Part shown: positions 1,532 to 45,442 of the stretch, in pieces
How positions within the stretch are numbered: the stretch's first letter is position 1
How the letters are laid out: each line of letters opens with the position of its first letter
Assembly: GCA_001821395.1 (NCBI GenBank)
Contig: MHLM01000004.1
Coordinates: forward strand, 32,001-96,000
From: Candidatus Lloydbacteria bacterium RIFCSPHIGHO2_02_FULL_50_18
GTDB lineage: Bacteria > Patescibacteriota > Minisyncoccia > Phycocordibacterales > UBA6899
Direction: 5' to 3'
DNA: 64,000 nt
The notes under the pieces: generated by a model
Databases searched by the model: none
What the model saw: only the letters and a program-made list of their open reading frames with translations
Told to the model about the DNA's origin: nothing
Translations under genes and position numbers: made by a program

Positions 1532-1533
1532 GT

Positions 1534-1671
1534 GCGGAGGGGGCGAGATGTTCGACGCCTACTGCGTCAGTACCCGTTTCCCATTTTCTCAACATAAGAA
1601 TGTCTCGAAAATAGGGGAGAACGGCTTCGAATCTCGCACGAAAGTCGAGCAGTCGACTTTCTCTCCTCCGC
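1534..1671 (-). repeat. tRNA-3'-end mimic mini-element, instance 1
   Basis: On the minus strand it reads: GCGGAGG acceptor-like stem; hairpin AAAGTCGA-CTGC-TCGACTTT; GCGAGATTCGAA; a 77-nt insert (module B, 1549-1625); then TCTCGCCCCCTCCGCA. That last part copies the T-stem/acceptor 3' strand of the tRNA at 1710-1796 immediately upstream. Module B is about 97% identical to 45097-45171. Confidence 0.5.
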
Positions 1672-1707
1672 ATAAAAAAATCACGCTCATGCGAGCGGAT
1701 TTTTAAA

Positions 1708-1796
1708 TGCGGAGGGGGCGAGATTCGAACTCGCGGACCGTTTAACGGGTCGACAGTTTAGTAAACTGTTGATTTAAACCACTCATCCACCCCTCC
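1708..1796 (-). tRNA. type II (long variable arm), Ser-like tRNA whose canonical fold gives anticodon ACU; possibly aberrant or a pseudogene
   Basis: Manual fold: acceptor GGAGGGG/CCCCTCC, discriminator G73, D-arm GAT-GAGTGGTTTAA-ATC, anticodon stem ACAGT/ACTGT with loop TTACTAA, 17-nt variable arm, T-arm GCGAG-TTCGAAT-CTCGC. The architecture parallels tRNA-Ser(GCT) at 2392-2481. Confidence 0.55.
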
Positions 1797-1836
1797 CTGA
1801 TTCCTGTACTGTAGCATAAAATGCAGCCATGAAAGA

Positions 1837-2216
1837 GAGAGGGCGGGAATTGGTCACAAGTCATACCATCTCCAGTTAACTCTTTCTGCTCACAGAAGTT
1901 TCAAAGGTCAGTCCTTGGCCCTGCCTGCGCAGGCAGGTTTGAAAGGTCTCTCCTTGGAAACTGATTCGGAAGACCTTAACGAGAGATGGTATCACTAAGC
2001 GTATGCGGAGCAAGGCTCCTTATCCGTTAAGTGCACCACGGAGAGGGCGGGAATTTCTCGGCTTACAGCCGCAATACACCTTTGCGATTTATTCAGCATA
2101 AGAATGCTTCACAAATATCACCACGAGGAGTACTTCATTTTTCTAAGACGGAGTACCGTTAAGAAAAATTGGTCGCGCAAAGCTTTTCGAATCTCTTTGC
2201 GAGAGGGCGGATGCGG
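1837..2216 (-). repeat. array of degenerate mini-elements downstream of tRNA-Ser, each ending in a partial copy of the tRNA-Ser 3' end
   Basis: GAGAGGGCGG(GAATT) occurs at 1837-1851, 2041-2056 and 2201-2216; it is the reverse complement of the tRNA-Ser acceptor 3' strand/T-stem. An inverted copy TTCGAATCCCGCCCTCTC lies at 2329-2346. The insert next to it starts AGACGGAGGCG, as does the insert at 45256. Confidence 0.45.
2125..2178 (-). repeat. conserved intergenic hairpin repeat (family M2), copy 1
   Basis: Reads (g)AGTACTTCCATTTTTCTAAG-stem-loop-CTTAGAAAAATTGGTCGC. Two related copies lie at 34395-34449 and 35550-35600. Confidence 0.6.
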
Positions 2217-2391
2217 TCACGAGTTACTAAGCTTTTTATTTCGCTTCGCTCATAAAAATCTAAGTACTCTCGACCCCGACTCGGCTACGACCTTCGACGA
2301 GCTCAGGTCGGCTTCGCGCCTCCGTCTTTCGAATCCCGCCCTCTCGCGCAATGGCATATTAAAAAAGACCTTTCGGTCATTTTTAAGCCAT

Positions 2392-4059: not shown

Positions 4060-5175
4060 ATGCCGAATCCGTTTGAAAAATTACTTGCCTCGTTCGCACC
4101 AAAAAAAGGGGGGAATGGCGTCGTGGGGGTGGACATTGGAAGCGCATTCATTAAGGTCGTAGAGTTGCACAAAAAGAATGGTAAGGCGGTGCTCGATACC
4201 TACGGCGAGATCGCTCTTGGTCCGCTTGCATCCCTTGAGGTTGGACAGGCGACAAACCTCACGACGGACAAGCTCGTTGAAGCGACGAATGATCTCTTTC
4301 TTGAAGCCAACGTCAAAAGTCGAAATCTCGTTTTTTCCCTTCCGCTTACATCGACCTTGGTGACGGTCATTGAAATGCCCGATGTCGGAGAGGCTAAATT
4401 GAAAGACATGATCCCGATGGAGGCGCGAAAGTATATCCCAACGTCTGTATCTGAAGTATCACTTTCACATTGGGTTATACCGAAGATCTCGCGTACCTAT
4501 ATCGATCCTGATAAGGCTGATGCGGAAAAAGGGGCACCTGCGAAGGTGGATGTGCTCCTTGCCGCAGTGCACAATGATGTGTTGGCAAAATACACCGATA
4601 TCGCCAAAAAACTTGGTGCAACGGCAACCGCATTTGAGATCGAGATATTTTCTACTATCCGTTCAACGATGAGCCGTGATACTACGGCGACGATGGTCGT
4701 TGATATCGGGGCGGGAAATACAAAGATCGCGATCGTTGAAGAAGGCGTTTTGCGGAGTTCTCATCTTATTAACGTAGGGTCCCAAGACGCAACGCTTGCA
4801 CTTTCACGTGCAAAAAGCATCAGCCTCCTCAGGGCGGAGGAGATAAAGCGCGAGTTCGGACTCTTGGGTGATCCGTCGGATGCATCGATCGCGGAGATCA
4901 CACGACTAGCTGTGGAACGCATCTTTTCCGAAGCAAGCCGAATTATGATGAACTACCAGCATGAAAAGCGCGTCAGTATCAATCGTGTCGTGCTTTCCGG
5001 AGGAGGGGTACTCATGAAGGGTGTCATGGATCTTGCGCAAAAAAGTTTTGAGACGACGGTGGTTAATGGTGATCCGTTTGCAAAGGTTGAGTCGCCTGCC
5101 GCCATCACTCCGCTCCTCAAGGAGTCCGGACCTGAGTTTGCGGTCGCCATTGGACTTGCGCTTCGAAATCTGTAG
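4060..5175 (+). CDS. pilM: type IV pilus assembly protein PilM (actin-like ATPase fold)
   Basis: GVDIGSAFIKVVEL N-terminal motif and the overall PilM/FtsA-like pattern. The start was chosen at MPNPFEK; the ORF is open from 3982. Confidence 0.75.
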   Translation: MPNPFEKLLASFAPKKGGNGVVGVDIGSAFIKVVELHKKNGKAVLDTYGEIALGPLASLEVGQATNLTTDKLVEATNDLFLEANVKSRNLVFSLPLTSTLVTVIEMPDVGEAKLKDMIPMEARKYIPTSVSEVSLSHWVIPKISRTYIDPDKADAEKGAPAKVDVLLAAVHNDVLAKYTDIAKKLGATATAFEIEIFSTIRSTMSRDTTATMVVDIGAGNTKIAIVEEGVLRSSHLINVGSQDATLALSRAKSISLLRAEEIKREFGLLGDPSDASIAEITRLAVERIFSEASRIMMNYQHEKRVSINRVVLSGGGVLMKGVMDLAQKSFETTVVNGDPFAKVESPAAITPLLKESGPEFAVAIGLALRNL

Positions 5176-5265
5176 TCGAGATCAAAAACCCGCATCTCTT
5201 TTTACTCAACTGTAGACAACTTCCTCGCAAAGTTTCTCTATTTCTTGTAAAATAAGGGTCTAGGA

Positions 5266-5973
5266 ATGCAAAATTCATTCGATACATCATTTATTCCGCA
5301 ACAGCCACTGCTTAAGGTGGCGGGGTTTGACCGCCGTCGCGAGTCGCTGAATCTCGCAATAGTGCTTTCGCTTGGCGCGTTTTTTATCGTACTTTTTGTC
5401 GCGGTGGGCGTCTATTTCTTTCATCGGAAGGTAGTGGGAGAGGTGCTTGCGCTTGCCGTGGAACTAGAGGATAAAGAAAAATTGATCGACATCGACGAGA
5501 TCGATCGTCTTAAGAGCGTCGATCTTCGTATCGTGGCAGCAAAAAATCTACTTCAAGATCATACGGTATTTACGATCATTCTTAATTTTCTGGAGGCGGG
5601 AACACTGAAAAACATAGGAATAACATCACTTTCCTACGCAAATAGTCCAGGCGGTTCTATTGTAAGTCTCGTCGCAGAGGCGCCAACCTACGAAGCGGTT
5701 TATTCGCAGGGAGAAACGTGGAGGAGCATGAAACCATTGGTTGAGAAAGTCGATATCTCCTCGGTTGTTCTTGCGGAAGCAACCGGTGTTGTTACTTTTA
5801 TTACAAAGATCACGATCAATCATGGTTTGACGCGTTATGCTGAATTTTTGAAGTCGGAAAAGATGAGTAAAAATGAGGAAATTACCGAGCCGGGTATTAT
5901 TCCGGTAATGAATGACCAATTCGAATTAGACGGAACGACATCATCCATACCAGTTAGTCCAGCCGCGCTATGA
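5266..5973 (+). CDS. pilN: PilN-like bitopic membrane protein
   Basis: Single N-terminal TM helix (LNLAIVLSLGAFFIVLFVAVGVYFF). Its position directly after pilM fits pilN. Confidence 0.5.
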   Translation: MQNSFDTSFIPQQPLLKVAGFDRRRESLNLAIVLSLGAFFIVLFVAVGVYFFHRKVVGEVLALAVELEDKEKLIDIDEIDRLKSVDLRIVAAKNLLQDHTVFTIILNFLEAGTLKNIGITSLSYANSPGGSIVSLVAEAPTYEAVYSQGETWRSMKPLVEKVDISSVVLAEATGVVTFITKITINHGLTRYAEFLKSEKMSKNEEITEPGIIPVMNDQFELDGTTSSIPVSPAAL

Positions 5974-9687: not shown

Positions 9688-10758
9688 ATGACCCAAGCTG
9701 AGTATAAAAAAGAACTAGAGGATCTCGTGCTGACGGTTATCCATGAAGGCGCTTCCGACCTGCATCTCGTTGTGGGTCGCCACCCGACGATCCGTGTTTC
9801 CGGAGAATTGATCCCGCTGGTCAAAAAACCACTACTCACACCCGAAGTGACGGAGGGATTGATAAGGGAATTGCTTACCGAAGAGATCTTCGTCAAATTC
9901 AAGCAGGATAAGGAGGTAGACTTTTCATTCTCTTTCGGTAAGGAGGCGCGTTTCCGCGGAAACGGTTTTTTTCAAAAAGGTACGATCGCAGTGGCACTCC
10001 GTCTCATTCCGAAGAAGATCAAAACTCTTCAGGAGCTTGCTTTGCCTCCGGTCTTGGAAATGTTCACCAAGCGAAAGCAAGGATTCTTTTTGGTCGTCGG
10101 TCCGGTTGGGCAGGGAAAATCGACCACACTTGCCGCAATGATCGAAATGATCAATCGCGAGCGTGCAGAGAACATCATCACCATCGAGGATCCGATCGAG
10201 TACGTGTTCACACCTGATCGTTCGATCATCAGTCAGCGTGAAGTGCATTTTGACACGAAGGATTTTCAGATCGCGTTGCATGCATGTTTTCGAGAGGACA
10301 TCGACATCATCTTGATCGGTGAAATGCGAGGACTTGAAACGATCTCGACGGCAGTGACCGCTGCTGAGACGGGGCATATGGTATTTTCGACGCTCCATAC
10401 CAACAATGCGTCACAAACGATCGACCGCATTATCGACTCATTTCCTCCTGAGCAGCAAGACCAGATCCGTGTCCAGCTTGCTGGTTCGCTCGCGGGAATA
10501 TTCTCACAACGTCTCGTTCCACGCATCTCCGGCGGTCTCGTTCCGGCATATGAACTCTTGATCAACAACAATGCAGTGGCCAACTTGATCCGTGAGCGTC
10601 GTACGCACGAGATACCGATGGTCATCGAGACGGGAATGGAGCTCGGCATGATCGATATGAACCGATCACTCGCGGAGCTCGTACGCGCAGGGGAGATCAC
10701 GGCGGAGAATGCGTATTTGCACTCCTTCAATCCGCGGTCACTCGAGCGAATGATCTAA
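9688..10758 (+). CDS. pilT: twitching-motility ATPase PilT
   Basis: Walker A GPVGQGKSTT, MVFSTLHTNNA and the PilT C-terminal AIRNLIRE-like motif (VANLIRERRTHEI); 356 aa. Confidence 0.9.
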   Translation: MTQAEYKKELEDLVLTVIHEGASDLHLVVGRHPTIRVSGELIPLVKKPLLTPEVTEGLIRELLTEEIFVKFKQDKEVDFSFSFGKEARFRGNGFFQKGTIAVALRLIPKKIKTLQELALPPVLEMFTKRKQGFFLVVGPVGQGKSTTLAAMIEMINRERAENIITIEDPIEYVFTPDRSIISQREVHFDTKDFQIALHACFREDIDIILIGEMRGLETISTAVTAAETGHMVFSTLHTNNASQTIDRIIDSFPPEQQDQIRVQLAGSLAGIFSQRLVPRISGGLVPAYELLINNNAVANLIRERRTHEIPMVIETGMELGMIDMNRSLAELVRAGEITAENAYLHSFNPRSLERMI

Positions 10759-10771
10759 CCATGACTTTCAT

Positions 10772-10875
10772 TTTTCGCGCCTCACTTTGTTACGGGGCCC
10801 CAGCGACTCGGTCAACATATATGAATATGTCTTCCTTGTCGCTTTCCCCGCGCCTCGTGACGCATCGAAAAATGA
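10772..10875. repeat. intergenic repeat A, copy 1 (about 93% identical to 35327-35440)
   Basis: TTTTCGCGCCTCACTTTGTT...CCCCAGCGACTCGGTCAACATATATGAATATGTCTTCCTTGTCGCTTTCCCCGCGCCTCGTGA(C/T)GCATCGAAAA. Both copies start within 15 nt after an ATPase-gene stop codon (pilT here; ftsE for copy 2). Confidence 0.8.
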
Positions 10876-11276
10876 AAGTCATGAAGGGTGTCGTTGTTCG
10901 ACGCCTCGCCCTGTATCAAAAAATAGGCCTCAGGTCTTATGTCGTGGGTCCGACAAACGTACTTTGAGTACGTCTGCTCGGACACCACTTCCTTGACGCC
11001 TCGTATTGCATCAGAAACCACGTCGAATTTGCATCTAATGCTCAACGCCTCGTGACGTATCGAAAAATGGAAGTGCTCTTGTGGCGCCTTGAGTACTGAA
11101 TTTTAGCAGTACGCTTATGGTATATCAAAAAATATTACTTCATATCGTTGATTGCTCGAATGTACTCCGAATATGTCTATCGGATATCGCCGCGTAAGGA
11201 GCCACCCTTCTTTGGTGGTTCGTTTTTATAAAGATGCTGTATAATATACTGGTCAGCTAAGTGACATCAACCACAT

Positions 11277-12488: not shown

Positions 12489-12745
12489 TCAAGAGTTCGC
12501 TAAGGTCGCGTCTACGTCGTTATCTGCGGAACGAACCCCGCTCGTCGTACTCCGAGTACGCCTCGGGAGGTGTCGTTCCTTGATGCCTCGTATCCACGAT
12601 CTTATCGGACTTTTGGGTGCGGCCTGCTCGCGGACCCTGTCACTTGGTCAACATATTTGCGTCAGCATCTTCCTTTTTTCCATTTTGGAACGACTTCCGT
12701 TGTTCTTTTTCTTAGGTTTGGTTAAAAAGACTCATATCGCATATA

Positions 12746-24814: not shown

Positions 24815-24867
24815 TCGTGATGATGTTCATAAAAGCAAGCACGCTTTCTTTTATGAACATCATCACG
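24815..24867. terminator. long perfect hairpin (20-bp stem), probable bidirectional terminator
   Basis: TCGTGATGATGTTCATAAAAG...CTTTTATGAACATCATCACGA. Confidence 0.55.
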
Positions 24868-24902
24868 AAAGATCTGCATATTGCGCCGACTCATCATCGT
24901 TT

Positions 24903-24979
24903 GTCGACGTAGCTCAGTTGGTTAGAGCGCGGGACTCATAAGCCCGAGGTCGGAGGATCGTTCCCTCCCGTCGACACCA
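24903..24979 (+). tRNA. tRNA-Met(CAU); the anticodon stem carries three consecutive G-C pairs, so it could be the initiator
   Basis: Acceptor GTCGACG/CGTCGAC, A73, CCA encoded, anticodon loop CTCATAA, anticodon stem CGGGA/GCCCG. Confidence 0.8.
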
Positions 24980-25111
24980 TCCAATAGGCATTATCGCGTT
25001 GGTAGTGGACTATCGGTGAATAATTTGCAGTGGTAAGAAGAAAATCCTTCTTTTCACCGCGGCATTCGCAAAAAATGATAATAGATGCTATTCTCATTTT
25101 GTCGCTTATTT

Positions 25112-25185
25112 GCGGTGGTAGCTCAATTGGTTAGAGCACCCGCCTGTCACGTGGGAGGTTGCGAGTTCGAGTCTCGTCCGCCGCG
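25112..25185 (+). tRNA. tRNA-Asp(GUC)
   Basis: Acceptor GCGGTGG/CCGCCGC, anticodon loop CTGTCAC, T-arm GCGAG-TTCGAGT-CTCGT, G73; CCA not encoded. Confidence 0.85.
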
Positions 25186-25193
25186 CAAATACA

Positions 25194-25219
25194 AAAAAAC
25201 TGCTTTTGCAGTTTTTTTG
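25194..25219 (+). terminator. rho-independent terminator after tRNA-Asp
   Basis: AAAAAAACTGC-tttt-GCAGTTTTTTT. Confidence 0.7.
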
Positions 25220-25234
25220 TGTTTGCACGGTGGA

Positions 25235-25392
25235 GGAAGCATCTGCATGCTTCCGACGAGACTCGAACTCGCCATCACCATGATGAGTACTTCCAATTTC
25301 ATACTCTCTGTAGTCGTTGAAATTTAGGTCGCTCCATAAAGCCTGCGATGACGATCTCGAATAAGCTTCGCTTCTCGTCCGTCCCGTAAATA
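25235..25392 (+). repeat. tRNA-3'-end mimic mini-element, instance 3 (downstream of tRNA-Asp)
   Basis: Hairpin GGAAGCAT-CTGC-ATGCTTCC; GACGAGACTCGAA, the inverted copy of the tRNA-Asp T-loop/T-stem; a ~105-nt insert ending ACGATCTCGAATA; then TCTCGTCCGTCCCGTAAATAC, an 85% copy of the last 21 nt of tRNA-Asp including the downstream AAATAC. Confidence 0.5.
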
Positions 25393-25415
25393 CAAAAAGT
25401 ACCTAAAGGTACTTT

Positions 25416-25484
25416 TTGTTCTTGTTGCGGGACCTGGAATCGAACCAGGGCCTTCAGGTTATGAGCCTGACGAGGTACCGCTCC
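25416..25484 (-). tRNA. tRNA-Met(CAU) elongator type, or tRNA-Ile2 if lysidinylated
   Basis: Acceptor GCGGGAT, anticodon stem TCAGG/CCTGA with loop CTCATAA, T-arm CCTGG-TTCGATT-CCAGG; 69 nt, followed by a hairpin/T-run terminator at 25390-25412. Confidence 0.75.
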
Positions 25485-25588
25485 TCTATCCCGCTATATT
25501 CACACCACGGTCAACTTTGTTTGATACGCGGATTGTAGCCAAAAAATCGATTTTTCGCAAGCGCGAATCTTTGGTATGCTATAGCAGT

Positions 25589-26209
25589 ATGAACGCGCTC
25601 GAAAAATTGATGCATTCTCGCCTAGCAAACATTTTACTCGGTACCTTCCTTTTTACTCTCTGGATGCTCTTCGTGTGGGTGCATATTCGTGCATTCATTG
25701 ATACGGACAAGTTCGCGTATCTGGTCTTTTGTGTTTCAGAGTCTTTACAGGCAATTCTTTTCCTTTTCCGCTCGATGCCAAAAGTGGTATCCATGGACCC
25801 CTTCGATTGGCTCGTTGCGGGAGGGGGGACACTCACTCCGCTTTTGTTGCGTCCGACGGACGTGCTTTTATGGGGGCACGGGGACATCATCGTTGTCGGC
25901 GCGGTGATCATCCAGATCATTGCATTGCTTTCGCTCAATAGGAGTTTTGCGCTCGTCGCTGCAAACAGATCGATCAAGACGCTTGGCGCGTATCGTATTG
26001 TGAGGCATCCAATGTACGCAAGCTACATTTTTCTTTTTTCAGGATATTTTTTGCTCAATGCGTCGATGATGAATGCGGGGCTGATCATCTTTGCTTGGGT
26101 ATTCATGGGCCTTCGACTTATAAGGGAAGAGAAGCTCTTGTCGGAAGACGTTGCATACCAGGAATACAAAAAACAGGTCAAATGGAGGCTGATTCCGTTT
26201 GTTTATTGA
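25589..26209 (+). CDS. isoprenylcysteine carboxyl methyltransferase (ICMT/PEMT) family membrane methyltransferase
   Basis: C-terminal signature RIVRHPMYASYIFLFSGYFLL...EEKLLSEDVAYQEYKKQVKWRLIPFVY with multiple TM helices. Confidence 0.7.
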   Translation: MNALEKLMHSRLANILLGTFLFTLWMLFVWVHIRAFIDTDKFAYLVFCVSESLQAILFLFRSMPKVVSMDPFDWLVAGGGTLTPLLLRPTDVLLWGHGDIIVVGAVIIQIIALLSLNRSFALVAANRSIKTLGAYRIVRHPMYASYIFLFSGYFLLNASMMNAGLIIFAWVFMGLRLIREEKLLSEDVAYQEYKKQVKWRLIPFVY

Positions 26210-26302
26210 AAAATTGAACATTTAGAAGAAATAGTGTACGATTTTGCTTGTTGTTCCATTTGCCTGCTTGATATTTACTGTTCAGCTGTTTGTTGCAGAG
26301 AA

Positions 26303-26337
26303 TATTTGAAGTGCCGTCGTAGCTGTTTTGGTAGATA
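26303..26337 (+). pseudogene. degenerate tandem copy of the 5' ~30 nt of tRNA-Thr(GGU), including 10 nt of its upstream flank
   Basis: ATTTGAAGTGCCGTCGTAGCT occurs at 26303 and again at 26339. The first copy continues GTTTTGGTAGATA against CAGCTGGTAGAGC in the real tRNA. Confidence 0.6.
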
Positions 26338-26348
26338 ACATTTGAAGT

Positions 26349-26424
26349 GCCGTCGTAGCTCAGCTGGTAGAGCATCTCCATGGTAAGGAGAAGGTCCCCG
26401 GTTCGATCCCGGGCGACGGCTCCA
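26349..26424 (+). tRNA. tRNA-Thr(GGU)
   Basis: Acceptor GCCGTCG/CGACGGC, anticodon stem TCTCC/GGAGA with loop ATGGTAA, T-arm CCCGG-TTCGATC-CCGGG, CCA encoded. Confidence 0.85.
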
Positions 26425-26432
26425 TGATCGGG

Positions 26433-26500
26433 ATAGTGTGCCGCCTTAGCTCAGTTGGCAAAAGAAAGTCAGACAGCTCACTCGTTACGAGTGTTGAGGA
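26433..26500 (+). pseudogene. pseudo-tRNA: 5' part plus anticodon-arm-like copy of tRNA-Thr(CGU), lacking a T-arm
   Basis: The 26-nt ATAGTGTGCCGCCTTAGCTCAGTTGG is identical to 26529-26554. CAGCTCACTCGTTACGAG matches the CATCTCACTCGTAACGAG anticodon arm of the real tRNA. No T-arm or acceptor 3' strand follows. Confidence 0.55.
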
Positions 26501-26534
26501 AGATGGTGTAAAATAGTGAACAATTGAATAGTGT

Positions 26535-26610
26535 GCCGCCTTAGCTCAGTTGGTAGAGCATCTCACTCGTAACGAGAAGGTCCGCAGTTCGATCCTGCGA
26601 GGCGGCTCCA
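26535..26610 (+). tRNA. tRNA-Thr(CGU)
   Basis: Acceptor GCCGCCT/AGGCGGC, anticodon loop CTCGTAA, T-arm CCGCA-GTTCGAT-CCTGCG, CCA encoded. Confidence 0.85.
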
Positions 26611-26746
26611 AGTAAATAGTTTCGCTCAGTTGGTAAGCCAAGTCCGCAAAGCCAGACACTGGGTTGGCTTTTTCGTAGCAGTGTCGCCCACCGGCGACGC
26701 ACCACACAACTCGTCTTCTCCGCTACGCTGCGAAAACGATCTCGAA

Positions 26747-26800
26747 TAGAGCATCTCACTCGTAACGAGAAGGTCCGCAGTTCGATCCTGCGAGGCGGCT
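26747..26800 (+). repeat. direct duplicate of the 3' 54 nt of tRNA-Thr(CGU), an attR-like scar
   Basis: AGAGCATCTCACTCGTAACGAGAAGGTCCGCAGTTCGATCCTGCGAGGCGGCTCT is identical to 26557-26609 except the terminal CT versus CCA. It is preceded by ACGATCTCGAAT, the same module end seen at 25356. Confidence 0.8.
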
Positions 26801-26923
26801 CTAGAAAAAGAACGTAGTATTTTTTTGTCCGCCTCAAGAAAATAACTGCTTGTTTTCTGGCAGGATCGAATAGCGAAGCTAAAAAGCCGCGCATATGCGC
26901 GGCTTTGTGTACTCACTCATTTC

Positions 26924-27403
26924 TCATGAAAGTTTTCCGGAGAAGAATAAGCGTCGAAGGATGCAGGGAATGAGGAGTATATTCCCCAGCAGAAAGAGTA
27001 GCGACCCCATCCATCGGCAAATGTCTCCGATGCTGACGAGATTGACTCCTCCCTCGAAAGGGTAGTCGAGCCATTTGCCCCACCACCTGATCGCGATACC
27101 TGGCGCGCCTTCCGGTATGTACTTCTCCCAATCGGGGAAATCGACCCGAATATGATCTGCGAGAAAGAGCAGCTTTCCGTCGGAAACGAATTTGCGCGGA
27201 GTCCCGTAGTTGGTCATGATAAATCCGGGTGTTTCAGAAATGACCGGCATAACTCCGTCGTTCACTTCGACCACAACTCCGTTCATGACGATCCCCCATG
27301 CATTCAATGCCAGGCCGGTCACAACAAGAAGGGCGAGCATGGTATCAACGAGACCCCACATCGTACGATCTCTCGTCAAAGAGAGTGTGTTTTTCAATCC
27401 CAC
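26924..27403 (-). CDS. hypothetical membrane protein
   Basis: 159-aa ORF with N- and C-terminal hydrophobic segments; no catalytic motifs recognised. Confidence 0.35.
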   Translation of the reverse strand: MGLKNTLSLTRDRTMWGLVDTMLALLVVTGLALNAWGIVMNGVVVEVNDGVMPVISETPGFIMTNYGTPRKFVSDGKLLFLADHIRVDFPDWEKYIPEGAPGIAIRWWGKWLDYPFEGGVNLVSIGDICRWMGSLLFLLGNILLIPCILRRLFFSGKLS

Positions 27404-34375: not shown

Positions 34376-34394
34376 AGCTCTCCTCGGCACCACG

Positions 34395-34449
34395 GAGAGT
34401 ACTTCCATTTTTCTAAGTGGATGACCACTAAGAAAAATTGGTCGCTCGG
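34395..34449 (-). repeat. hairpin repeat family M2, copy 2
   Basis: GAGAGTACTTCCATTTTTCTAAGTGG-atga-CCACTAAGAAAAATTGGTCGCTCGG. Confidence 0.6.
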
Positions 34450-34638: not shown

Positions 34639-35325
34639 ATGTCGCTAATGATCTATTTCGATAATGTGACGAAACTATACTCTGACCACGCCGCGGTGTC
34701 GGACGTTACCTTTGGCATTGAGTCGGGGGAATTCCTCTCGATTGTAGGGCATTCGGGTGCCGGGAAAACGTCGCTGTTGCGCCTTCTTTTGGTAGAAGAT
34801 AGGCCGACGTCAGGTGCCGTTTTTTTTGAAAAAACCGATATCCATCGTATCAAGGCCGCTCATGTGCCGGAATATCGCAGACGCATCGGTACTGTTTTTC
34901 AGGATTTTCGGCTGTTTCCCAATAAGACTGCGTATGAGAATATTGCGTTCGCACTTGAGGCTGCCGGACGTACCGATGAGGAGATCCGCTCCGATGTTCC
35001 GCAGGTGCTCGAGCTTGTCGATCTTGCGTCAAAAGCGCTGCATTTTCCGCACGAGCTCTCCGGAGGGGAGAAGCAACGTGTCGCCATCGCGCGTGCTATC
35101 ATTTCGCAACCCGATGTACTGATCGCCGACGAGCCGACGGGAAATCTCGACCCGGTGAATACCTACGACATCATTCAGATATTGAAGAAGATCAATGACA
35201 TGGGAACAACGATCATTTTGACGACGCACAACAAGGGGATCATCGACGCGCTGAAGAAGCGGGTGGTGACGATGGAGAATGGGAAGGTTATACGTGACGA
35301 TGCTCACGGCAAATATATTCTCTAA
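34639..35325 (+). CDS. ftsE: cell division ATP-binding protein FtsE
   Basis: Walker A GHSGAGKTS, ABC signature LSGGEKQRVAIARA, Walker B VLIADEPTGNLD; 228 aa. Confidence 0.85.
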   Translation: MSLMIYFDNVTKLYSDHAAVSDVTFGIESGEFLSIVGHSGAGKTSLLRLLLVEDRPTSGAVFFEKTDIHRIKAAHVPEYRRRIGTVFQDFRLFPNKTAYENIAFALEAAGRTDEEIRSDVPQVLELVDLASKALHFPHELSGGEKQRVAIARAIISQPDVLIADEPTGNLDPVNTYDIIQILKKINDMGTTIILTTHNKGIIDALKKRVVTMENGKVIRDDAHGKYIL

Positions 35326-35326
35326 T

Positions 35327-35440
35327 ATTTTCGCGCCTCACTTTGTTGTAAGGCAGCGCACTTATGCCCCAGCGACTCGGTCAACATATATGAATATGTC
35401 TTCCTTGTCGCTTTCCCCGCGCCTCGTGATGCATCGAAAA
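35327..35440. repeat. intergenic repeat A, copy 2
   Basis: About 93% identical to 10772-10875; begins 2 nt after the ftsE stop. Confidence 0.8.
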
Positions 35441-35549: not shown

Positions 35550-35600
35550 GTGACCAATTTTTCTCAGCGGTACTCCGCTTTAGAAAAATGAAATGCCCTC
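35550..35600 (+). repeat. hairpin repeat family M2, copy 3
   Basis: GTGACCAATTTTTCTCAGCGG-tact-CCGCTTTAGAAAAATGAAATGCC. It is directly preceded by GCGCCTCGTGATG, a member of the GCCTCGT motif family. Confidence 0.6.
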
Positions 35601-35694
35601 TGTGGTACATCAAAAATATTTCGGCCGGCATATTGACATAATCAGTTATTTTCATAGGATGAGTATTGGAAGAGTTTGAAAAGGAGAATTGACC

Positions 35695-39234: not shown

Positions 39235-41130
39235 ATGATTCAAGAGACCGCTCTTACTATTATGAAAACGGGGGCGAATGTATTCCTCACGGGGGAGCCC
39301 GGGAGCGGTAAAACGCATACCGTAAACGCATATATCCGCTACCTCCGCGAGCACAACGTCAATCCTTCGATCACTGCTTCAACGGGTATCGCCGCGACGC
39401 ACGTCGGCGGGATGACCATTCATTCATGGAGCGGTATCGGCATCAAGCGTGCGCTCACCGAATATGACCTCGATGCGCTGTCCTCGAACGAAGGACTTGT
39501 GAAGCGTATCGCCAATGCAAAGGTGCTTATCATCGATGAGATATCGATGCTCGACGGCAACACGCTGGTCATGGTGGAGGCGGTCACGCGAACGCTTCGT
39601 CGCAAGCACGAGCCTTTCGGCGGACTGCAGATAATTTTCGTCGGCGATTTCTTTCAGCTGCCTCCCATCGCGGACCGGGCAAGCGGTGTTCGTGCGCAGT
39701 TTTGTTTCGAATCAACAGCATGGCGAGTGGCGAATCCCATAGTGTGCTATCTCTCCGAGCAGCACCGTCAGGAAGACACCGCGTTTCTCTCTACGCTTGG
39801 CGCCATTCGCCGCGGAGAGCTCGAGGATAGCGTCTTTGAATATATCGGCGAGAGGCACGTGCTCCCAGGTGAGCATCCACACGACATTCCGCAGCTCTAT
39901 ACGCACAACATTGATGTCGACAAAAAGAATACGGAAGAGCTCGCAAAACTTGAAACGGAAGAAAAGGTCTTTCTCATGAGCACGAAGGGGACGAGCAATC
40001 GCGTGGAGCAGCTGATCAAGGGCTGTCTTTCACCCGAGGAACTGGTGTTGAAAGAAGGCGCATCGGTGATGTTCACCAAAAATAATTTTGAAAACGGCTA
40101 TGTGAACGGCACATTGGGGACGGTGGTGGGATTCGACGAGGACAATGGTTTTCCAATTGTTGAAACATCGGGCGGAGAAAATATTACCGCGCTTCCTTCC
40201 GAATGGGCCGTTGATGATTCTGGGAAAGTGCTCGCCACCATCACTCAGGTACCGCTCCGACTCGCGTGGGCTATTACCGTGCACAAGAGCCAGGGGATGA
40301 GCCTTGATGCCGCGACGATGGATCTCTCGCGCGCATTTGAATACGGGCAAGGGTATGTGGCACTCTCTCGTGTACGCGCATTCTCGGGATTGCACATCCT
40401 CGGCATCAATCAGCGCGCATTCGAGGTGCACCCTCTTGTGCTTGAGCGCGACCTCGCGTTTCACGAGCGTTCGGATGAAGCGGAGGCGGGGTTTCTCGAC
40501 ATGTCGGACGCCGACCTCCGGAAGTTACACGAGAACTTTTTACTCGCCATTGGAGGGAATCTGGCGAAAAAAGAAATCATTGCCAAGGCATTCGGTGTTC
40601 CAAAACTGAGTACGTATGAAGAAACGCTCGCGCTCCTCAGCCCCGGGATGACGCTCGCCGCGATTGCCAAGCGTCGGGACGTGACCGAGGGGACGATCGT
40701 GGGCCATATCGAAGAACTCGCGCTACTCGGAAAGCTCCCGTCGATAGACATCGCCGCCTTTGCCGAGCTTCCTGCGTCGGTGGTGAAGGAGATAACGCAA
40801 ACGATCGAGACGATCGGAGGAGAATTTCTCAAGCCGCTCTACCTTGAATTGGATGAACGTTATTCTTATGAAACGATCCGTCTTGTTCGATTCGGAGCGG
40901 GCATTGCTCCGAAGCAAAAAGACGCCGTCGTTGCGAAAAAAGAAAAGGTAAAAAAGGTGTCACATGAAAAACCCGCAAAGCTCGGAGCGAAGTGGGGAAA
41001 GGAAGAGGAAGAACGACTCACAAAAATGTTCAAAGAGGGAAAGAAGACGAAGGACATCGCACAGACACTTGAACGGCAGTCGGGGGGTATCCGTGCTCGT
41101 TTGAAGAAGCTGGGGCTGATAAAAAAATAG
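39235..41130 (+). CDS. Pif1-family (RecD-like SF1B) ATP-dependent DNA helicase with a C-terminal HTH-like tail
   Basis: Walker A GEPGSGKTH, the Pif1 signature ITASTGIAATHVGGMTIHSWSGIG, Walker B LIIDEISM, FQLPPI and AITVHKSQGMSLD; the C-terminal region is basic with an HTH_40-like shape. Confidence 0.8.
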   Translation: MIQETALTIMKTGANVFLTGEPGSGKTHTVNAYIRYLREHNVNPSITASTGIAATHVGGMTIHSWSGIGIKRALTEYDLDALSSNEGLVKRIANAKVLIIDEISMLDGNTLVMVEAVTRTLRRKHEPFGGLQIIFVGDFFQLPPIADRASGVRAQFCFESTAWRVANPIVCYLSEQHRQEDTAFLSTLGAIRRGELEDSVFEYIGERHVLPGEHPHDIPQLYTHNIDVDKKNTEELAKLETEEKVFLMSTKGTSNRVEQLIKGCLSPEELVLKEGASVMFTKNNFENGYVNGTLGTVVGFDEDNGFPIVETSGGENITALPSEWAVDDSGKVLATITQVPLRLAWAITVHKSQGMSLDAATMDLSRAFEYGQGYVALSRVRAFSGLHILGINQRAFEVHPLVLERDLAFHERSDEAEAGFLDMSDADLRKLHENFLLAIGGNLAKKEIIAKAFGVPKLSTYEETLALLSPGMTLAAIAKRRDVTEGTIVGHIEELALLGKLPSIDIAAFAELPASVVKEITQTIETIGGEFLKPLYLELDERYSYETIRLVRFGAGIAPKQKDAVVAKKEKVKKVSHEKPAKLGAKWGKEEEERLTKMFKEGKKTKDIAQTLERQSGGIRARLKKLGLIKK

Positions 41131-41186
41131 ACAAAAATTTGAAAGCGAGAGGTATTTGACAAGTGCGATAAACTACTGCAGGATTG
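41073..41186 (+). repeat. direct repeat L (helicase 3' end plus a promoter-like 34-mer)
   Basis: About 90% identical to 42906-43018. The 34-nt core GGTATTTGACAAGTGCGATAAACTACTGCAGGAT is 100% identical in both copies and contains TTGACA. Confidence 0.8.
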
Positions 41187-41220
41187 ACGGTAGACATACA
41201 TTTCATTGAAAGAAAATATC

Positions 41221-42831
41221 ATGAGAACAATCGGTTTTCTCAGAGCTTTCTTCTCCATCTTCAAGGAGATGCGCACCTCGTATCTCCCTCCGCTCATGGT
41301 ATACATGGCTGCGGGTGTTTCCGGGATTACTGCCATCGTTGGCACGTTCTACGTGAAGGAGCGACTCGGGCTTTCTGCGGAATTTCTGAGTGCGCTCGGT
41401 TTTTGGATTGGTTTGCCGTGGGTACTCAAGATGCCTATTGGTCACCTTGTCGATCTTCTGTGGCGGTGGAAAAGCGCATTCGTAATTCTCGGAGCAGGAT
41501 TGATTGCGTCGAGCCTCGGCATTATGGTCGGACTTCTTGGTTATACCGATGCGATGCGCGAAGTTGCCAGAGTGGAAGCGTGGTATGTCATCGCGGTTCT
41601 GCTTGCGCCGATCGGGTATGTGCTCCAAGATATCGTTGCGGATGCGATGACGGTCGAAGCAGTTCCGCGCATGAATCTTGACGGCACCGCGGTGAGCGAC
41701 GCCGATCTCAAGCTGATGCACACGACCATGCAGACACTTGGTCGCATTGCGATCATCGGCGGTGGTATCCTGGTATCTCTCGTAAATATCTTTCTGCTCA
41801 CTGGTGTTGGAGATCTTCCGCCGGCGGAAAAAGCGGCTACGTATCTTTTTGTATACCAGCTTGCCCTCGCCATCCCGATGATCTCAGTGCTCGGTGTCTT
41901 GCTTGCATCGGTGTTTCGTTGGAGTGACGTACGGACGCTCGTTGCGCAAGGAAAAACGAAAGCTGAGGCCCGGGCATTTCTCGATCGAGCATGTAAGGCT
42001 CCCGCGATAAACTGGGTGTTACTTGGTGGCGGGCTTGCGTTCGCAATTGCTGCCATTACGATCGGATTGAGCAAGATCGATGGAGGCCAGGAGATTGTTT
42101 TTGGTATCTCACTTCTTATCATTCTCTTCCTCATGAATCAACTCATGAAGGAGATCAGCAAGGAGGGTCGCAGGACGCTCATTGTCACGGCGCTCCTCAT
42201 TTTCGTCTATCGCGCGATGCCGGGAGTTGGACCGGGGATAGAGTGGTGGCAGATTGATGAATTGCACTTCGATCAGGAATTCTTTGCGAAGCTGTCATTC
42301 ATCGGCAGCACGCTCGTCCTCCTCGGGATGCTCGGTTTTCGTCGTTTTATTGCTGAGCGGTCTATGGCATATGTGCTCGGATTCCTGACGGTTGCGGGAA
42401 CGTTGCTGTCGCTTCCGACAATTGGCATGTATTACGGATTGCATGAGTGGACGGCCGCTATGACCGGAGGAGTCGTCGACGCACGCTTTATTGCGATCGT
42501 CGATACGGCAATTTCATCTCCTCTAGGGCAGGTCGCAATGATTCCCATGCTTGCGTGGATCGCAAACTCGGCACCGGAGCAGCTCAAGGCGACATTCTTT
42601 GCGGTCATGGCATCGTTTACGAACCTTGCACTCTCCGCGTCCAGCCTCGGAACGAAGTATTTGAATCAGGTCTTCGTGGTGACTCGTGAAGTGAGAGACG
42701 AAGCGACGAATGCCATCATTACACAGGCGAACTACGCTGAATTGGGAACCTTGCTCATCGTGGCAACCGCACTCGGATTCGTTGTGCCAATGCTTGCCGT
42801 TTGGCTTTTGCGAAAAAAGACCAGTTACTAA
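41221..42831 (+). CDS. multi-pass membrane transporter (MFS-like, about 12 TM; family uncertain)
   Basis: About 536 aa, highly hydrophobic with 11-12 predicted TM helices. Bracketed by direct repeats L and R and followed by a terminator at 42841-42867. Confidence 0.45.
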   Translation: MRTIGFLRAFFSIFKEMRTSYLPPLMVYMAAGVSGITAIVGTFYVKERLGLSAEFLSALGFWIGLPWVLKMPIGHLVDLLWRWKSAFVILGAGLIASSLGIMVGLLGYTDAMREVARVEAWYVIAVLLAPIGYVLQDIVADAMTVEAVPRMNLDGTAVSDADLKLMHTTMQTLGRIAIIGGGILVSLVNIFLLTGVGDLPPAEKAATYLFVYQLALAIPMISVLGVLLASVFRWSDVRTLVAQGKTKAEARAFLDRACKAPAINWVLLGGGLAFAIAAITIGLSKIDGGQEIVFGISLLIILFLMNQLMKEISKEGRRTLIVTALLIFVYRAMPGVGPGIEWWQIDELHFDQEFFAKLSFIGSTLVLLGMLGFRRFIAERSMAYVLGFLTVAGTLLSLPTIGMYYGLHEWTAAMTGGVVDARFIAIVDTAISSPLGQVAMIPMLAWIANSAPEQLKATFFAVMASFTNLALSASSLGTKYLNQVFVVTREVRDEATNAIITQANYAELGTLLIVATALGFVVPMLAVWLLRKKTSY

Positions 42832-42905: not shown

Positions 42906-43018
42906 TGAACGCCAGTCGGGAGGTATTCGCTCTCGTTTGAAAAAGCTGGGGCTGATAAAAAAAAGACATACATTTGAAGGCAAGGAGGTATTTGACAAGT
43001 GCGATAAACTACTGCAGG
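42906..43018 (+). repeat. direct repeat R, including an in-frame pseudo-fragment of the helicase C-terminus
   Basis: Would encode NERQSGGIRSRLKKLGLIKK against LERQSGGIRARLKKLGLIKK in the helicase. Four of five nucleotide differences in that stretch are synonymous. The 34-nt promoter-like core is identical. Confidence 0.8.
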
Positions 43019-43063
43019 ATGAAACAAGATCGTTTTCTTTGACGAAACTCTAAGGAGTCTGTG

Positions 43064-44941: not shown

Positions 44942-45014
44942 TGCGGGTTCGTCTAATGGTAGGACATCGCCCTCTGGAGGCGAGTATTGGGGTTCGAGTC
45001 CCTGACCCGCAGCA
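44942..45014 (+). tRNA. tRNA-Gln(CUG)
   Basis: U1-A72 acceptor (TGCGGGT/ACCCGCA), anticodon stem TCGCC/GGCGA with loop CTCTGGA, T-arm TGGGG-TTCGAGT-CCCTG, G73. Followed by hairpin GAAAACACCCC-ttttaat-GGGGGTGTTTTC. Confidence 0.85.
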
Positions 45015-45051
45015 AATGAAAACACCCCTTTTAATGGGGGTGTTTTCATTT

Positions 45052-45189
45052 GCGAGGAGAGGAAGCCATCTGCATGGCTTCCGGCAGGGACTCGAAGCCG
45101 TTCTCCCATATTTTCGAGACATTCTTATGTTGAGAAAATAGGAAACGGGTACTGACGCAGTAGGCGTCGAGATTCCCTGACCCGCAGCA
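45052..45189 (+). repeat. tRNA-3'-end mimic mini-element, instance 2 (downstream of tRNA-Gln), carrying module B
   Basis: Hairpin GGAAGCCAT-CTGC-ATGGCTTCC; CAGGGACTCGAA, the inverted copy of the tRNA-Gln T-loop/T-stem; module B at 45097-45171, about 97% identical to 1549-1625 in the opposite orientation; then ATTCCCTGACCCGCAGCA, the tRNA-Gln T-stem/acceptor 3' strand. Confidence 0.55.
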
Positions 45190-45234
45190 GCCGCACAAAA
45201 CCACTCTGTATGGAGTGGTTTTGTTTTGCGGTTG

Positions 45235-45442
45235 CTCGCGGGTCAGGGACTCGAAAGACGGAGGCGGTCTACGCCGCCACTTTCCTAAGTGCGGTGTCGC
45301 CGAGCGACATTGTTTTCTTATGAGTAAGCGAGTTAGAAAACAAGAAGTACTCTTGTGGTGCCGGGGTCGAGAGCACTTAGGCTTTTGGCTGCCTTGCGCC
45401 AAAATATTTAGTGACTCGTGATCAAGTTTGACCCGTAGACAT
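45235..45442 (+). repeat. second tRNA-Gln-derived mini-element with a different insert (module C)
   Basis: CTCGCGGGTCAGGGACTCGAA (inverted copy); an insert starting AGACGGAGGCG, as at 2217-2326 in reverse complement; a degenerate terminal copy TTTGACCCGTAGACA. Preceded by a long hairpin at 45175-45232 built from the tRNA-Gln 3' end and its complement. Confidence 0.4.

Follow-up and report, generated by a model that had tools for sequence, protein, structure and literature searches.

We analyzed a family of small noncoding elements that lie behind tRNA genes in a 64,000-nucleotide (nt) stretch of the genome of Candidatus Lloydbacteria bacterium RIFCSPHIGHO2_02_FULL_50_18 (assembly GCA_001821395.1, contig MHLM01000004.1, positions 32,001 to 96,000). 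This stretch is referred to as the window, and positions are given in its coordinates. The interval from 2201 to 2346, behind the gene for tRNA-Ser(GCT), appears to be one copy of this tRNA-tail family. We lean toward a composite explanation, in which a family of protein-less elements resides in the tRNA tails of Patescibacteria (the candidate phyla radiation, CPR) and encodes a structured RNA embedded in a tRNA minihelix, with cores that spread between tails and flanks that are re-derived from each tRNA. A full-text search of the literature outside subscription journals, including the motif strings, returned nothing on these elements, and the family is apparently undescribed, that is, new relative to the sources consulted.

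RESULTS

The C-type core is a complete conserved unit

A preliminary description of the sequence had reported that the inserts behind tRNA-Ser and tRNA-Gln share their start (module C), that those behind tRNA-Asp and tRNA-Thr share their end (module D), and that the inserts are mosaics assembled from a limited set of end modules. In a search of the whole window, the 11-nt module C (AGACGGAGGCG) was found exactly at 2317-2327 on the minus strand and 45256-45266 on the plus strand only, where about 0.03 exact matches are expected by our own arithmetic; allowing one mismatch added a single site, against 0.92 expected. Both copies lie in tRNA tails and abut ...TTCGAA or ...CTCGAA, which is the reverse complement of the T loop of the upstream tRNA. 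The shared start is thus confirmed, and the words of modules C and D are not matches scattered through coding sequence, as neither occurs in the coding sequence of the window.

A profile hidden Markov model built from 58 homologs of the core aligns with the Ser(GCT) copy from end to end (2332-2214, 76.4 bits) and with the Gln copy in two pieces (45251-45304 and 45361-45424, corresponding to model positions 1-52 and 53-110). The 56 nt between the two pieces are a nested copy of another repeat, the H module. Because the profile covers both, the Ser(GCT) element and the second Gln element are homologous throughout, and their differing interiors consist of variable hairpin caps and the nested insertion. 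Module C is therefore not an end module placed on unrelated interiors; it forms the 5' edge, which is invariant, of a core that is conserved as a whole and measures approximately 95 to 125 nt.

C-type cores are found behind tRNAs with many anticodons

Metagenomes were scanned with the pattern AGACGGAGGCG-N22-42-CCGAGTCGGGGT, in which both motifs were required exactly. The pattern was present at no fewer than 118 loci from groundwater, lake, sediment (including marine sediment), and other samples. Among the matches listed, 85 of 121 hits are preceded by a tRNA gene on the same strand, mostly ending 62 to 72 nt before the core, and these upstream tRNAs have 31 different anticodons. The layout is constant in the window and the listed loci: behind the tRNA come a terminator-like hairpin, the tRNA 3' end in inverted copy (IR), the core, and a direct copy of that end (DR) from C56. 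The IR corresponds to the last ~21 nt of the tRNA plus the trailer, prolongs the palindrome of the terminator, and ends in ...YYGAA. The DR starts at C56 and, in 30 of 34 cases, stops at the 3' end of the tRNA, after which the sequence is unrelated; this speaks against a simple duplication extending over the terminator.

Both flanks match the cognate tRNA: in 51 elements, the median local scores were 15 for the IR and 16 for the DR, versus 7 and 6, respectively, for noncognate tRNAs. No evidence emerged for the proposal that the module ends are recombination sites; the flanks repeat the local tRNA, once in inverted and once in direct orientation, and are not a duplicated crossover site. On the contigs with C hits among the matches listed, an IR is located behind 71 of 140 tRNAs and a DR behind 82 of 140, and 31 tRNAs of the same contigs have neither copy, several of them having a plain terminator hairpin alone. 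As a negative control, no IR was found behind any of 39 tRNAs in loci fetched via GatA, which are mostly from non-CPR organisms. The inverted copies often begin with TTTTGTAGC opposite ...GCACAAAA of the tRNA end (L107, L109, L114, L132, L136, L138, and L143). A recurrent extra A thus faces the discriminator region across different tRNAs and could be an extrahelical recognition base.

The labeled carriers (L034, L036, and L061) are all Patescibacteria; their loci came from a search of GTDB genomes with GatA, which returned distant relatives only (at most 57% identity), the genome of the window being absent from the retained loci. In L036, which is from Candidatus Paceibacterota and has a GatA 48% identical to that of the window, the core lies behind tRNA-Asp within a tandem array of at least three identical units. 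Neither the gapped C pattern nor a probe for the E hairpin (see below) had a match in IMG/VR. The bare 16-mer TCGAAAGACGGAGGCG gave chance matches only, in coding DNA of viral contigs, and on these results we rejected a phage origin.

The core folds into a strand-specific three-way junction

A structure was imposed on a MAFFT alignment of the 58 cores that had not been fitted to any structure. The cores form a three-way junction on the tRNA-sense strand only, made up of helix Pa, a GGA/GA internal loop, helix Pb, a GGG junction, and helix Pc. Pa is formed by GAC/GUC, and Pb by GGCG/CGCC with a 5-pair extension and a variable cap. Pc is formed by GGUCG/...GUGAC(C), with a 7-pair extension past a bulged invariant A and, again, a variable cap. 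The junction is closed by 14 pairs between the inverted and the direct tRNA copies, and the strands that make it up (AAA, GGG, and none where Pc meets the flank helix) do not vary.

In the alignment, 87.3% of the cells assigned to helices are paired, versus 31 to 40% when the partners are slid by 1 to 3 columns, and the covariation score is 0.300 versus 0.07 to 0.13. None of 500 shuffles reached the observed paired fraction, number of cells changed on both sides, or covariation score. The wobble G88.U162 is present in 57 of the 58 sequences. At other positions, the pairs change among G-C, G.U, and A-U, and in the outer Pc extension (helix 6), 97.7% of the cells are paired and five pairs covary. 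An independent prediction with RNAalifold also yields Pa, Pb, and Pc. In 89 of 89 cores, the fold of the sense strand is better than that of the antisense strand (mean, -39.4 versus -29.0 kcal/mol), and the C core behind tRNA-Ser(GCT) in the window has a predicted RNA fold of -68.1 kcal/mol (z = -4.5). The core thus displays the covariation-supported, strand-specific secondary structure by which structured RNAs in general are recognized. The fold resembles that of a functional RNA; a substrate consisting of single-stranded DNA of the top strand would look identical.

Other cores, the E hairpin, and the H module

Two further core types were found. A-type cores are represented by the window copies and by L157, L158, L192, L182, and L121, and G-type cores have the form GGCGGAG...GAGCCGCGUCCAG...ACUUA...UUAGUAA...GGGAC. 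The C-, A-, and G-type cores use one scaffold. In the A-type, G-type, and Asp elements, the left arm is interrupted by what we term the E hairpin, exactly between the complements of the acceptor stem and the T stem. This hairpin has a covarying stem of 8 to 9 bp and a constant CUGC loop, and it is present four times in the window and at least eight times in other loci. With the E hairpin, the RNA predicted for the A-type element is a tRNA-shaped junction.

The H module is present at 25276-25332, 34388-34445 (plus strand), 35552-35606 (minus strand), and 45305-45360 (minus strand), besides 2119-2176. It occurs in either orientation, inside cores and also away from tRNAs, and has no match in Rfam. 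The copies of the module (CACCACNRGAGTACTTCC-hairpin-TGGTCGC) at 34388-34445 and 35552-35606 flank an open reading frame (ORF) at 34639-35325 in opposite orientations. In L146, a 186-nt unit is repeated 2.2 times at 99% identity, and the H module is present beside the C element (10033-10314) as five perfect tandem copies of 56 nt (100% identity).

The inserts are consequently not unrelated spacers, in agreement with the preliminary description, as recurrent families (C, A, H, and the E hairpin) are combined and nested behind different tRNAs. The term mosaic is apt, with the correction that its units are whole structured modules and not end pieces.

Other repeats were noted in the window. A 75-nt intergenic repeat with no tRNA association (10797-10871 and 35366-35440, 99% identity) contains CGCCTCGTGAYGCATCGAAAA and has related pieces at 11046-11074 and 12629-12659. 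The segments 41070-41184 and 42906-43020 share repeats of 58 nt (90%) and 36 nt (100%), which lie at and just past the 3' ends of the adjacent ORFs 39235-41130 and 41206-42831 and probably reflect a tandem gene duplication.

Module D is a genuine repeat of 21 nt

The 13-nt module D (ACGATCTCGAATA) was found exactly at 25351-25363 and 26736-26748 only, where ~0.002 exact matches, or 0.13 with up to one mismatch, are expected in the window. The similarity extends to 19 of 21 positions (CTGCGA[TG/AA]ACGATCTCGAATA; 25343-25363 and 26728-26748; repeat family D16), and each copy adjoins a direct tRNA fragment. The insert end shared by the Asp and Thr elements had therefore been described correctly, with coordinates that deviate by a few bases, and module D is real as a repeat of 21 nt. 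On its 3' side is an apparent 3' strand of a D stem (TAGAGC... in Thr; AGC and then the T loop in Asp), and this would be in keeping with insertions of another kind, at D-loop position 20/21. Within the module are CTGC and GATCTCGAA, similar to the loop of the E hairpin and to a T-arm complement. Module D was not seen in 216 loci, apart from one chance viral match. The two inserts that bear it have nothing else in common, and searches with either insert found neither the other nor any further match.

Organization of the tRNA tails in the window

The window has eight tRNA genes. Its 872-amino-acid penicillin-binding protein is encoded identically on MHLI01000005.1 (GCA_001818945.1) and on a JGI groundwater contig.

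The parent gene of the element, tRNA-Ser(GCT), is located at 2392-2481 on the minus strand (ARAGORN; Rfam tRNA, 54.1 bits). Its trailer, with a terminator-like A-tract, hairpin, and T-tract (2350-2391, minus strand), forms the apex of an ~87-nt palindrome, in which the inverted copy pairs with the 3' end of the tRNA (inverted repeat I5; arms 2328-2358 and 2384-2414, 87% complementary). The palindrome gives only subthreshold, microRNA-precursor-like Rfam matches, i.e., those of a long hairpin. On the same strand follow the IR (GCGCGAGAGGGCGGGATTCGAA; 2328-2349; local score 19), which ends in the reverse complement of T-loop positions 54 to 59, the 112-nt C-type core (AGACGGAGGCG...CCGAGTCGGGGTCGAGAG...CTCGTGAC; 2216-2327), which matches the full nhmmer model, and a slightly decayed direct copy from C56, read from the sequence (DR1, CGCATCCGCCCTCTCGC; 2199-2215). 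An H module (CACCACGAGGAGTACTTC-hairpin-TGGTCGC; 2119-2176, plus strand; repeat families D10, D13, I2, and I3, and a regular expression match) lies beyond DR1, here antisense to the tRNA. It is followed on the minus strand by a degenerate A-type core (2057-2118; blastn identity of 71% to both A copies; nhmmer E = 0.011) and a second direct copy of the tRNA 3' end (DR2, 2039-2056). A third unit, likewise recognized by reading (1835-2038, minus strand), ends with ...CTTGTGACC like the C core and is closed by a third direct copy (DR3, 1835-1851, minus strand).

The A-type element behind tRNA-Ser(ACT) (1533-1672, minus strand; repeat I1, 136 nt with 82% identity to the Gln copy; nhmmer, 62.1 bits) consists of the acceptor complement (1665-1672), the E hairpin with its CUGC loop (1640-1661), the T-stem complement with TTCGAA (1626-1637), the A core (1552-1625), and the direct copy (1533-1555). 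The tRNA itself (1709-1796, minus strand), which lies beside tRNA-Ser(GCT), has the anticodon ACT (A34), which is unusual in bacteria. Two other carrier contigs likewise have Ser(GCT) and Ser(ACT) side by side, with the Ser(ACT) gene at 5606-5693 in L187 and at 9543-9629 in L108.

Two elements follow tRNA-Gln(CTG), both on the plus strand. The first is of the A type (45052-45189; fold of -57.8 kcal/mol, z = -4.1, with a tRNA-like junction) and comprises a left arm with the E hairpin (45061-45082), the IR (45083-45096), the A core (45097-45172), and the direct copy (45173-45189). The second is of the C type (45232-45440), identified by the exact module C and the split nhmmer matches, and comprises IR2 (45232-45255), the 5' domain of the core (45256-45304), the nested H module (45305-45360), the 3' domain (45361-45423), and a decayed direct copy (45424-45440).

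The element behind tRNA-Asp (25225-25386, plus strand; repeats I7, I10, D9, and D16) is made up of the acceptor complement (25225-25234), the E hairpin (25235-25254), the complement of the whole T arm (25255-25272), the H module (25276-25332), module D (25343-25363), and the direct copy (25367-25386). For tRNA-Thr(CGT), a pseudo-copy split in the D loop (26624-26801, plus strand; repeat family D2; blastn identity of 100% over 55 nt) is composed of a 5' piece (GCTCAGTTGGTA; 26624-26635), a 111-nt insert with module D at its end (26636-26746 and 26728-26748, respectively), and a 3' piece that is a 55-nt exact copy of tRNA positions ~20 to 76 (26747-26801). TA is present on both sides of the insert. 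An E-type left arm for the same tRNA (26828-26870, plus strand; I21 and I22), consisting of the acceptor complement, the CUGC hairpin (26837-26858), and GGCAGGATCGAA, is followed by neither a core nor a direct copy. At both tRNA-Thr genes the 5' ends and upstream bases are partly duplicated (26290-26361 and 26433-26553). The segment 26433-26458 is 100% identical to 26528-26553, 69 nt apart, so that 5' portions of tRNAs are duplicated besides 3' portions.

Turnover of cores and changes around the tails

At the syntenic Ser(GCT)/Ser(ACT) pair, the order of core types is A then C in L187 and C then A in the window, and the Ser(GCT) gene of L108 has no element. Comparison of the A cores in the window shows 2 differences in 74 positions, and the surrounding terminators and E stems are unrelated. 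A mini-circle comprising the whole unit is thereby ruled out as the mobile entity for the A copies, the core alone being common to them.

We looked for presence or absence of elements between strains through exact protein matches and abandoned this approach, as all contigs are of the same strain and end at tRNA-Gln, and one (L224) is chimeric. Nine independent assemblies of the window strain (L218 to L226; window 44969-45092) end in or just past tRNA-Gln. In L224 (1-109), what follows the shared T arm is another tRNA-Gln tail, whose core is a variant (AGGCGCAGGCGG...CGCCGAGC); because the acceptor strands do not pair, this contig is an assembly chimera joined in the T arm.

Cores that seemed to be orphans far from any tRNA can be accounted for, in L107 at least, by DNA that was later inserted between the tRNA and its tail. 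A 5.3-kb island (L107, 347-5902) separates tRNA-Tyr from the displaced C-type tail there. The island carries the gene for a large serine recombinase (4303-5832), which overlaps the tRNA 3' end, as well as one for a Schlafen/AlbA_2 plus HATPase_c_4 protein, and it represents a classical integration at the extreme tRNA 3' end. In L118, 2.6 kb lies between tRNA-Ala and the tail, and the orphan IR is still a 21-nt perfect complement of tRNA-Ala.

Duplication with inverted triplication by template switching that includes the terminator was rejected, because the trailer after the DR resembles the tRNA trailer in only 4 of 34 cases, at least two of which (L036 and L123) are tandem arrays. Several inverted copies contain small inversions of 3 to 4 nt, which hint at template switching.

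Comparison with known families and enzymes

In a scan of the whole window against Rfam 15, the tRNAs alone reached threshold; the models included hammerhead, twister, hatchet, pistol, and HDV-like ribozymes, group I and II introns, IS605-orfB, HEARO, and tmRNA. E-value scans of 1400-2600, 24850-26950, and L146 8400-10560 gave weak matches of the hairpin or terminator type only, and the match to permuted tmRNA (14 bits) covers a hairpin only. A hammerhead was excluded, given the junction strands (AAA, GGG, and none), the absence of an Rfam match, and an A-core segment, CUGACGC...GCGUCGAA, without G8/A9; inspection of the conserved strings by eye likewise found the core signatures of hammerhead, HDV-like, and hairpin ribozymes to be absent. 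No protein cluster recurs near 78 loci, the top 25 families represented in 114 neighboring proteins include no recombinase, transposase, or reverse transcriptase, and no integrase or recombinase is encoded inside the elements, which span 100 to 200 nt.

Integrative elements reportedly use tRNA genes as attachment sites, with sublocations at the T loop and the 3' end, as Williams is said to have described in 2002. The present elements share with them the direct copy of the tRNA 3' end from the T loop at the far end (C56; median score of 16 versus 6), stacked units, and retention of a functional tRNA. They differ in that integrative elements span kilobases and carry an integrase, whereas these span 100 to 200 nt and have an additional inverted copy, a covarying core, and hosts with 31 anticodons. 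In Escherichia coli, tyrT is followed by tandem 178-bp units, each starting with the last 19 nt of tRNA-Tyr. These repeats also form tandem units 3' of a tRNA gene with a tRNA 3' copy in each, but they are confined to a single locus and are not known to have an inverted copy or a structured core common to different tRNAs.

Like REP/BIME/REPIN sequences, BOX elements, and MITEs (miniature transposable elements with inverted repeats), the present elements are small, noncoding, hairpin forming, modular or nested, and multicopy, and their G.U stems suggest a role when transcribed. In REPINs, however, the arms are conserved and the loop is free, whereas here the arms are copied from the tRNA and vary with it, the loop (the core) is conserved, and association with tRNA 3' ends is strict. 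The terminal inverted repeats of MITEs are absent, since the core ends AGACGGAG... and ...YGTGAC are not complementary. A target site duplication (CG or CGAA) was rejected, as nonpalindromic T loops show complementary and not identical sides; in L104, whose T loop is not palindromic, the boundaries are ...GGATTTG/AA and C/AAGTCC, and the flanks pair right up to the core. Nor do the elements have the attC boxes of integrons (RYYYAAC ... GTTRRRY), the arms being tRNA specific and the T-loop sequence alone being common, with no integrase nearby.

The palindrome-associated transposable elements (PATEs) of the IS200/IS605 type and the associated guide RNA scaffolds are similar in having subterminal hairpins and strand specificity and in lacking inverted ends and duplications, and the IS605 scaffolds also combine an RNA-like structure of ~100 nt with a subsequent flank of ~20 nt. 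PATEs have similar hairpins at their ends, unlike Pb and Pc, which differ in sequence and architecture; no transposase or TnpB is encoded nearby, and there is no Rfam match to IS605 or HEARO. Modules resembling tRNA are known from the tRNA-like domain of tmRNA, YrlA, mascRNA, and viral tRNA-like structures. They too join a mimic of the acceptor/T stem to a foreign domain and may make use of tRNA-processing enzymes. The mimic described here differs in that it copies the neighboring tRNA, pairs even with the discriminator and the trailer, and is present in many copies per genome, with the foreign domain replacing the T loop. Finally, self-splicing introns that can be recognized as group I interrupt tRNA genes of Patescibacteria at anticodon-loop position 35/36 (PMC13011429). 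They share with the present elements the host phylum, the tie of an RNA element to tRNA, and the absence of cis-encoded proteins (PMC13011429), and they differ from them in that the present elements lie outside an intact tRNA, are ~100 nt long, and belong to no Rfam family.

DISCUSSION

In the explanation that we favor, the element would be transcribed by read-through from the tRNA promoter, within the 3' trailer of the tRNA; we found no sigma-70-like promoter between the tRNA and the element, and one upstream of tRNA-Gln. Together, both copies would reconstitute the neighboring tRNA's acceptor/T-stem minihelix, with the core in the position of the T loop, and in the A-type, G-type, and Asp relatives, a 9-bp CUGC hairpin would take the place of the D and anticodon arms. 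The resulting RNA may be a substrate for the processing that tRNAs undergo (RNase P, 3' trimming, or CCA addition). Cores would be exchanged and would spread between tRNA tails, and the flanks would be copied afresh from the local tRNA, most likely by copy-choice or by synthesis that folds back at the palindrome of the terminator and at the quasi-palindromic T loop. Tandem amplification, replacement of core types, nesting, and similarity within genomes show that the cores behave as exchangeable, spreading units.

Several points weigh against this explanation. Strand-specific folding with G.T pairs is equally expected of a single-stranded DNA transposition substrate, and the high conservation of the two motifs is partly ascertainment, the scan having demanded both exactly. 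Where the DR departs from the tRNA, the IR follows the tRNA at 181 sites and the DR at 29. Compensatory evolution of the IR/DR helix was accordingly not found (29 sites versus 181 and 248), and the IR and DR are independent copies of the tRNA that decay separately. The probability of IR/DR pairing, moreover, drops to background beyond ~15 bp. With no compensatory change and a short pairing, the minihelix may be a by-product of the way in which the flanks are made rather than a selected structure. The hairpin between the tRNA and the element looks like a terminator, and transcription is deduced from the sequence. The higher similarity of core pairs within a locus or contig (median identity of 0.885 versus 0.675 between loci) derives from six pairs only, of which two are from near-identical contigs and one is from a tandem array. 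Finally, we have no worked-out mechanism that gives both an inverted and a direct copy of a target.

Alternative explanations have to be judged against the same evidence. That unrelated spacers downstream of tRNAs resemble each other by chance has a negligible probability; the words are short (11 and 13 nt), yet each was observed twice where far less than one exact match is expected, and for module C the explanation is already refuted, with homology spanning the whole core and at least 118 independent loci sharing its context. A second alternative is a set of host RNA genes that are not mobile, that is, vertically inherited RNAs that accompany tRNAs at their 3' ends, with stems kept matched by gene conversion. 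They could act as processing signals, as regulators or decoys for tRNA-binding enzymes or toxins, or as sponges of the 3'-external-transcribed-spacer type. The extreme conservation of the junction nucleotides across groundwater, lake, and marine sediment samples, the covariation-supported structure, the tRNA-like design with its CUGC hairpin, and the orphan IR of L118, kept as a 21-nt perfect complement at a distance of 2.6 kb, would all fit such genes. We nevertheless regard them as unlikely, because homologous tRNAs differ in content (C, A, or none), 31 tRNAs of the same contigs have neither copy, and the IR and DR decay independently. Perfect tandems, modules nested in either orientation, and stacked decayed remnants also look like selfish turnover.

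Mobility might instead be that of the DNA. The elements could be miniature integrative cassettes, in which small circles consisting of tRNA positions 56 to 76, the trailer hairpin, the IR, and the core are inserted at T55/C56 by a site-specific recombinase acting in trans, restoring the tRNA and displacing its old 3' end. This would liken them to integrase islands of the T-loop class or to integron cassettes, with the hairpin of tRNA 3' end and IR as an attC-like site and the RNA structure incidental. Such insertion would account for the exact start of the direct copy at C56 and its end at the tRNA 3' end in most cases, for tandem arrays of identical units, and for the Gln array, where the tRNA-proximal unit is better preserved and IR2 copies the tRNA and not the adjacent DR1; in one carrier genome, the 3' end of a tRNA is indeed used by an island with a large serine recombinase. 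The circle is not the conserved unit, however, as the A units of the window share the core alone and their terminators, E stems, and tRNA parts are unrelated, and a sequence-specific integrase leaves unexplained how one core type serves 31 anticodons. No recombinase family recurs near the 78 loci or among the 114 neighboring proteins, and the covariation with frequent G.U pairs and the preference for the sense strand in every core imply selection on one strand. We therefore consider cassettes rather unlikely. Very improbable, in our judgment, is a nonautonomous, PATE-like element of the IS200/IS605 type, which would travel in single-stranded DNA form by means of a Y1 transposase encoded elsewhere and would be targeted 3' of a ...YGAA motif that resembles a T loop and lies at a DNA hairpin tip. 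The lack of terminal inverted repeats and target site duplications, the subterminal hairpins at both ends, the strict orientation, the strand-specific folding, and the constant left flank ...TYGAA are what such an element would show. Against this, Pb and Pc, the hairpins at the two ends, are dissimilar, T-loop conservation in tRNAs fully accounts for the left-flank motif, none of the 31 tRNAs with neither copy showed the target hairpins (IR...DR lacking a core), and neither an IS605-related Rfam motif nor a tnpA/tnpB-like family was found among the neighbors examined.

Within the favored explanation of an RNA-encoding tail element, it is doubtful that the C core, and perhaps the A core or the H unit, might be a new small catalytic or ligation-competent RNA. 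In the predicted fold, Pc stacks on the tRNA-mimic helix without a linker at the boundary between the core and C56, a geometry that would suit self-cleavage or sealing where the spare tRNA 3' fragment begins. Unit-length RNAs could be cut from tandem arrays and circularized into viroid-like RNAs, or the 3' fragment (positions 56 to 76) could be joined by an RtcB-like RNA ligase to a tRNA cut in the T loop, as a spare part for repair. It is the anatomy that suggests a catalytic or ligating role.

If the favored explanation is correct, tRNA genes of a very large radiation of minimal genomes would commonly carry a second RNA element in their tails, and at least three new conserved RNA structures (the C core, the A core, and the CUGC hairpin) would be added to a phylum with few known noncoding RNAs. 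How one core gains both an inverted and a direct copy of any host tRNA would be a puzzle that known schemes of transposition or integration leave unexplained. The repeats split metagenome assemblies at tRNA genes, can yield chimeric contigs, and mimic partial tRNAs in annotation. The invariant junction of the C core would be a candidate for ribozyme or protein-binding assays.

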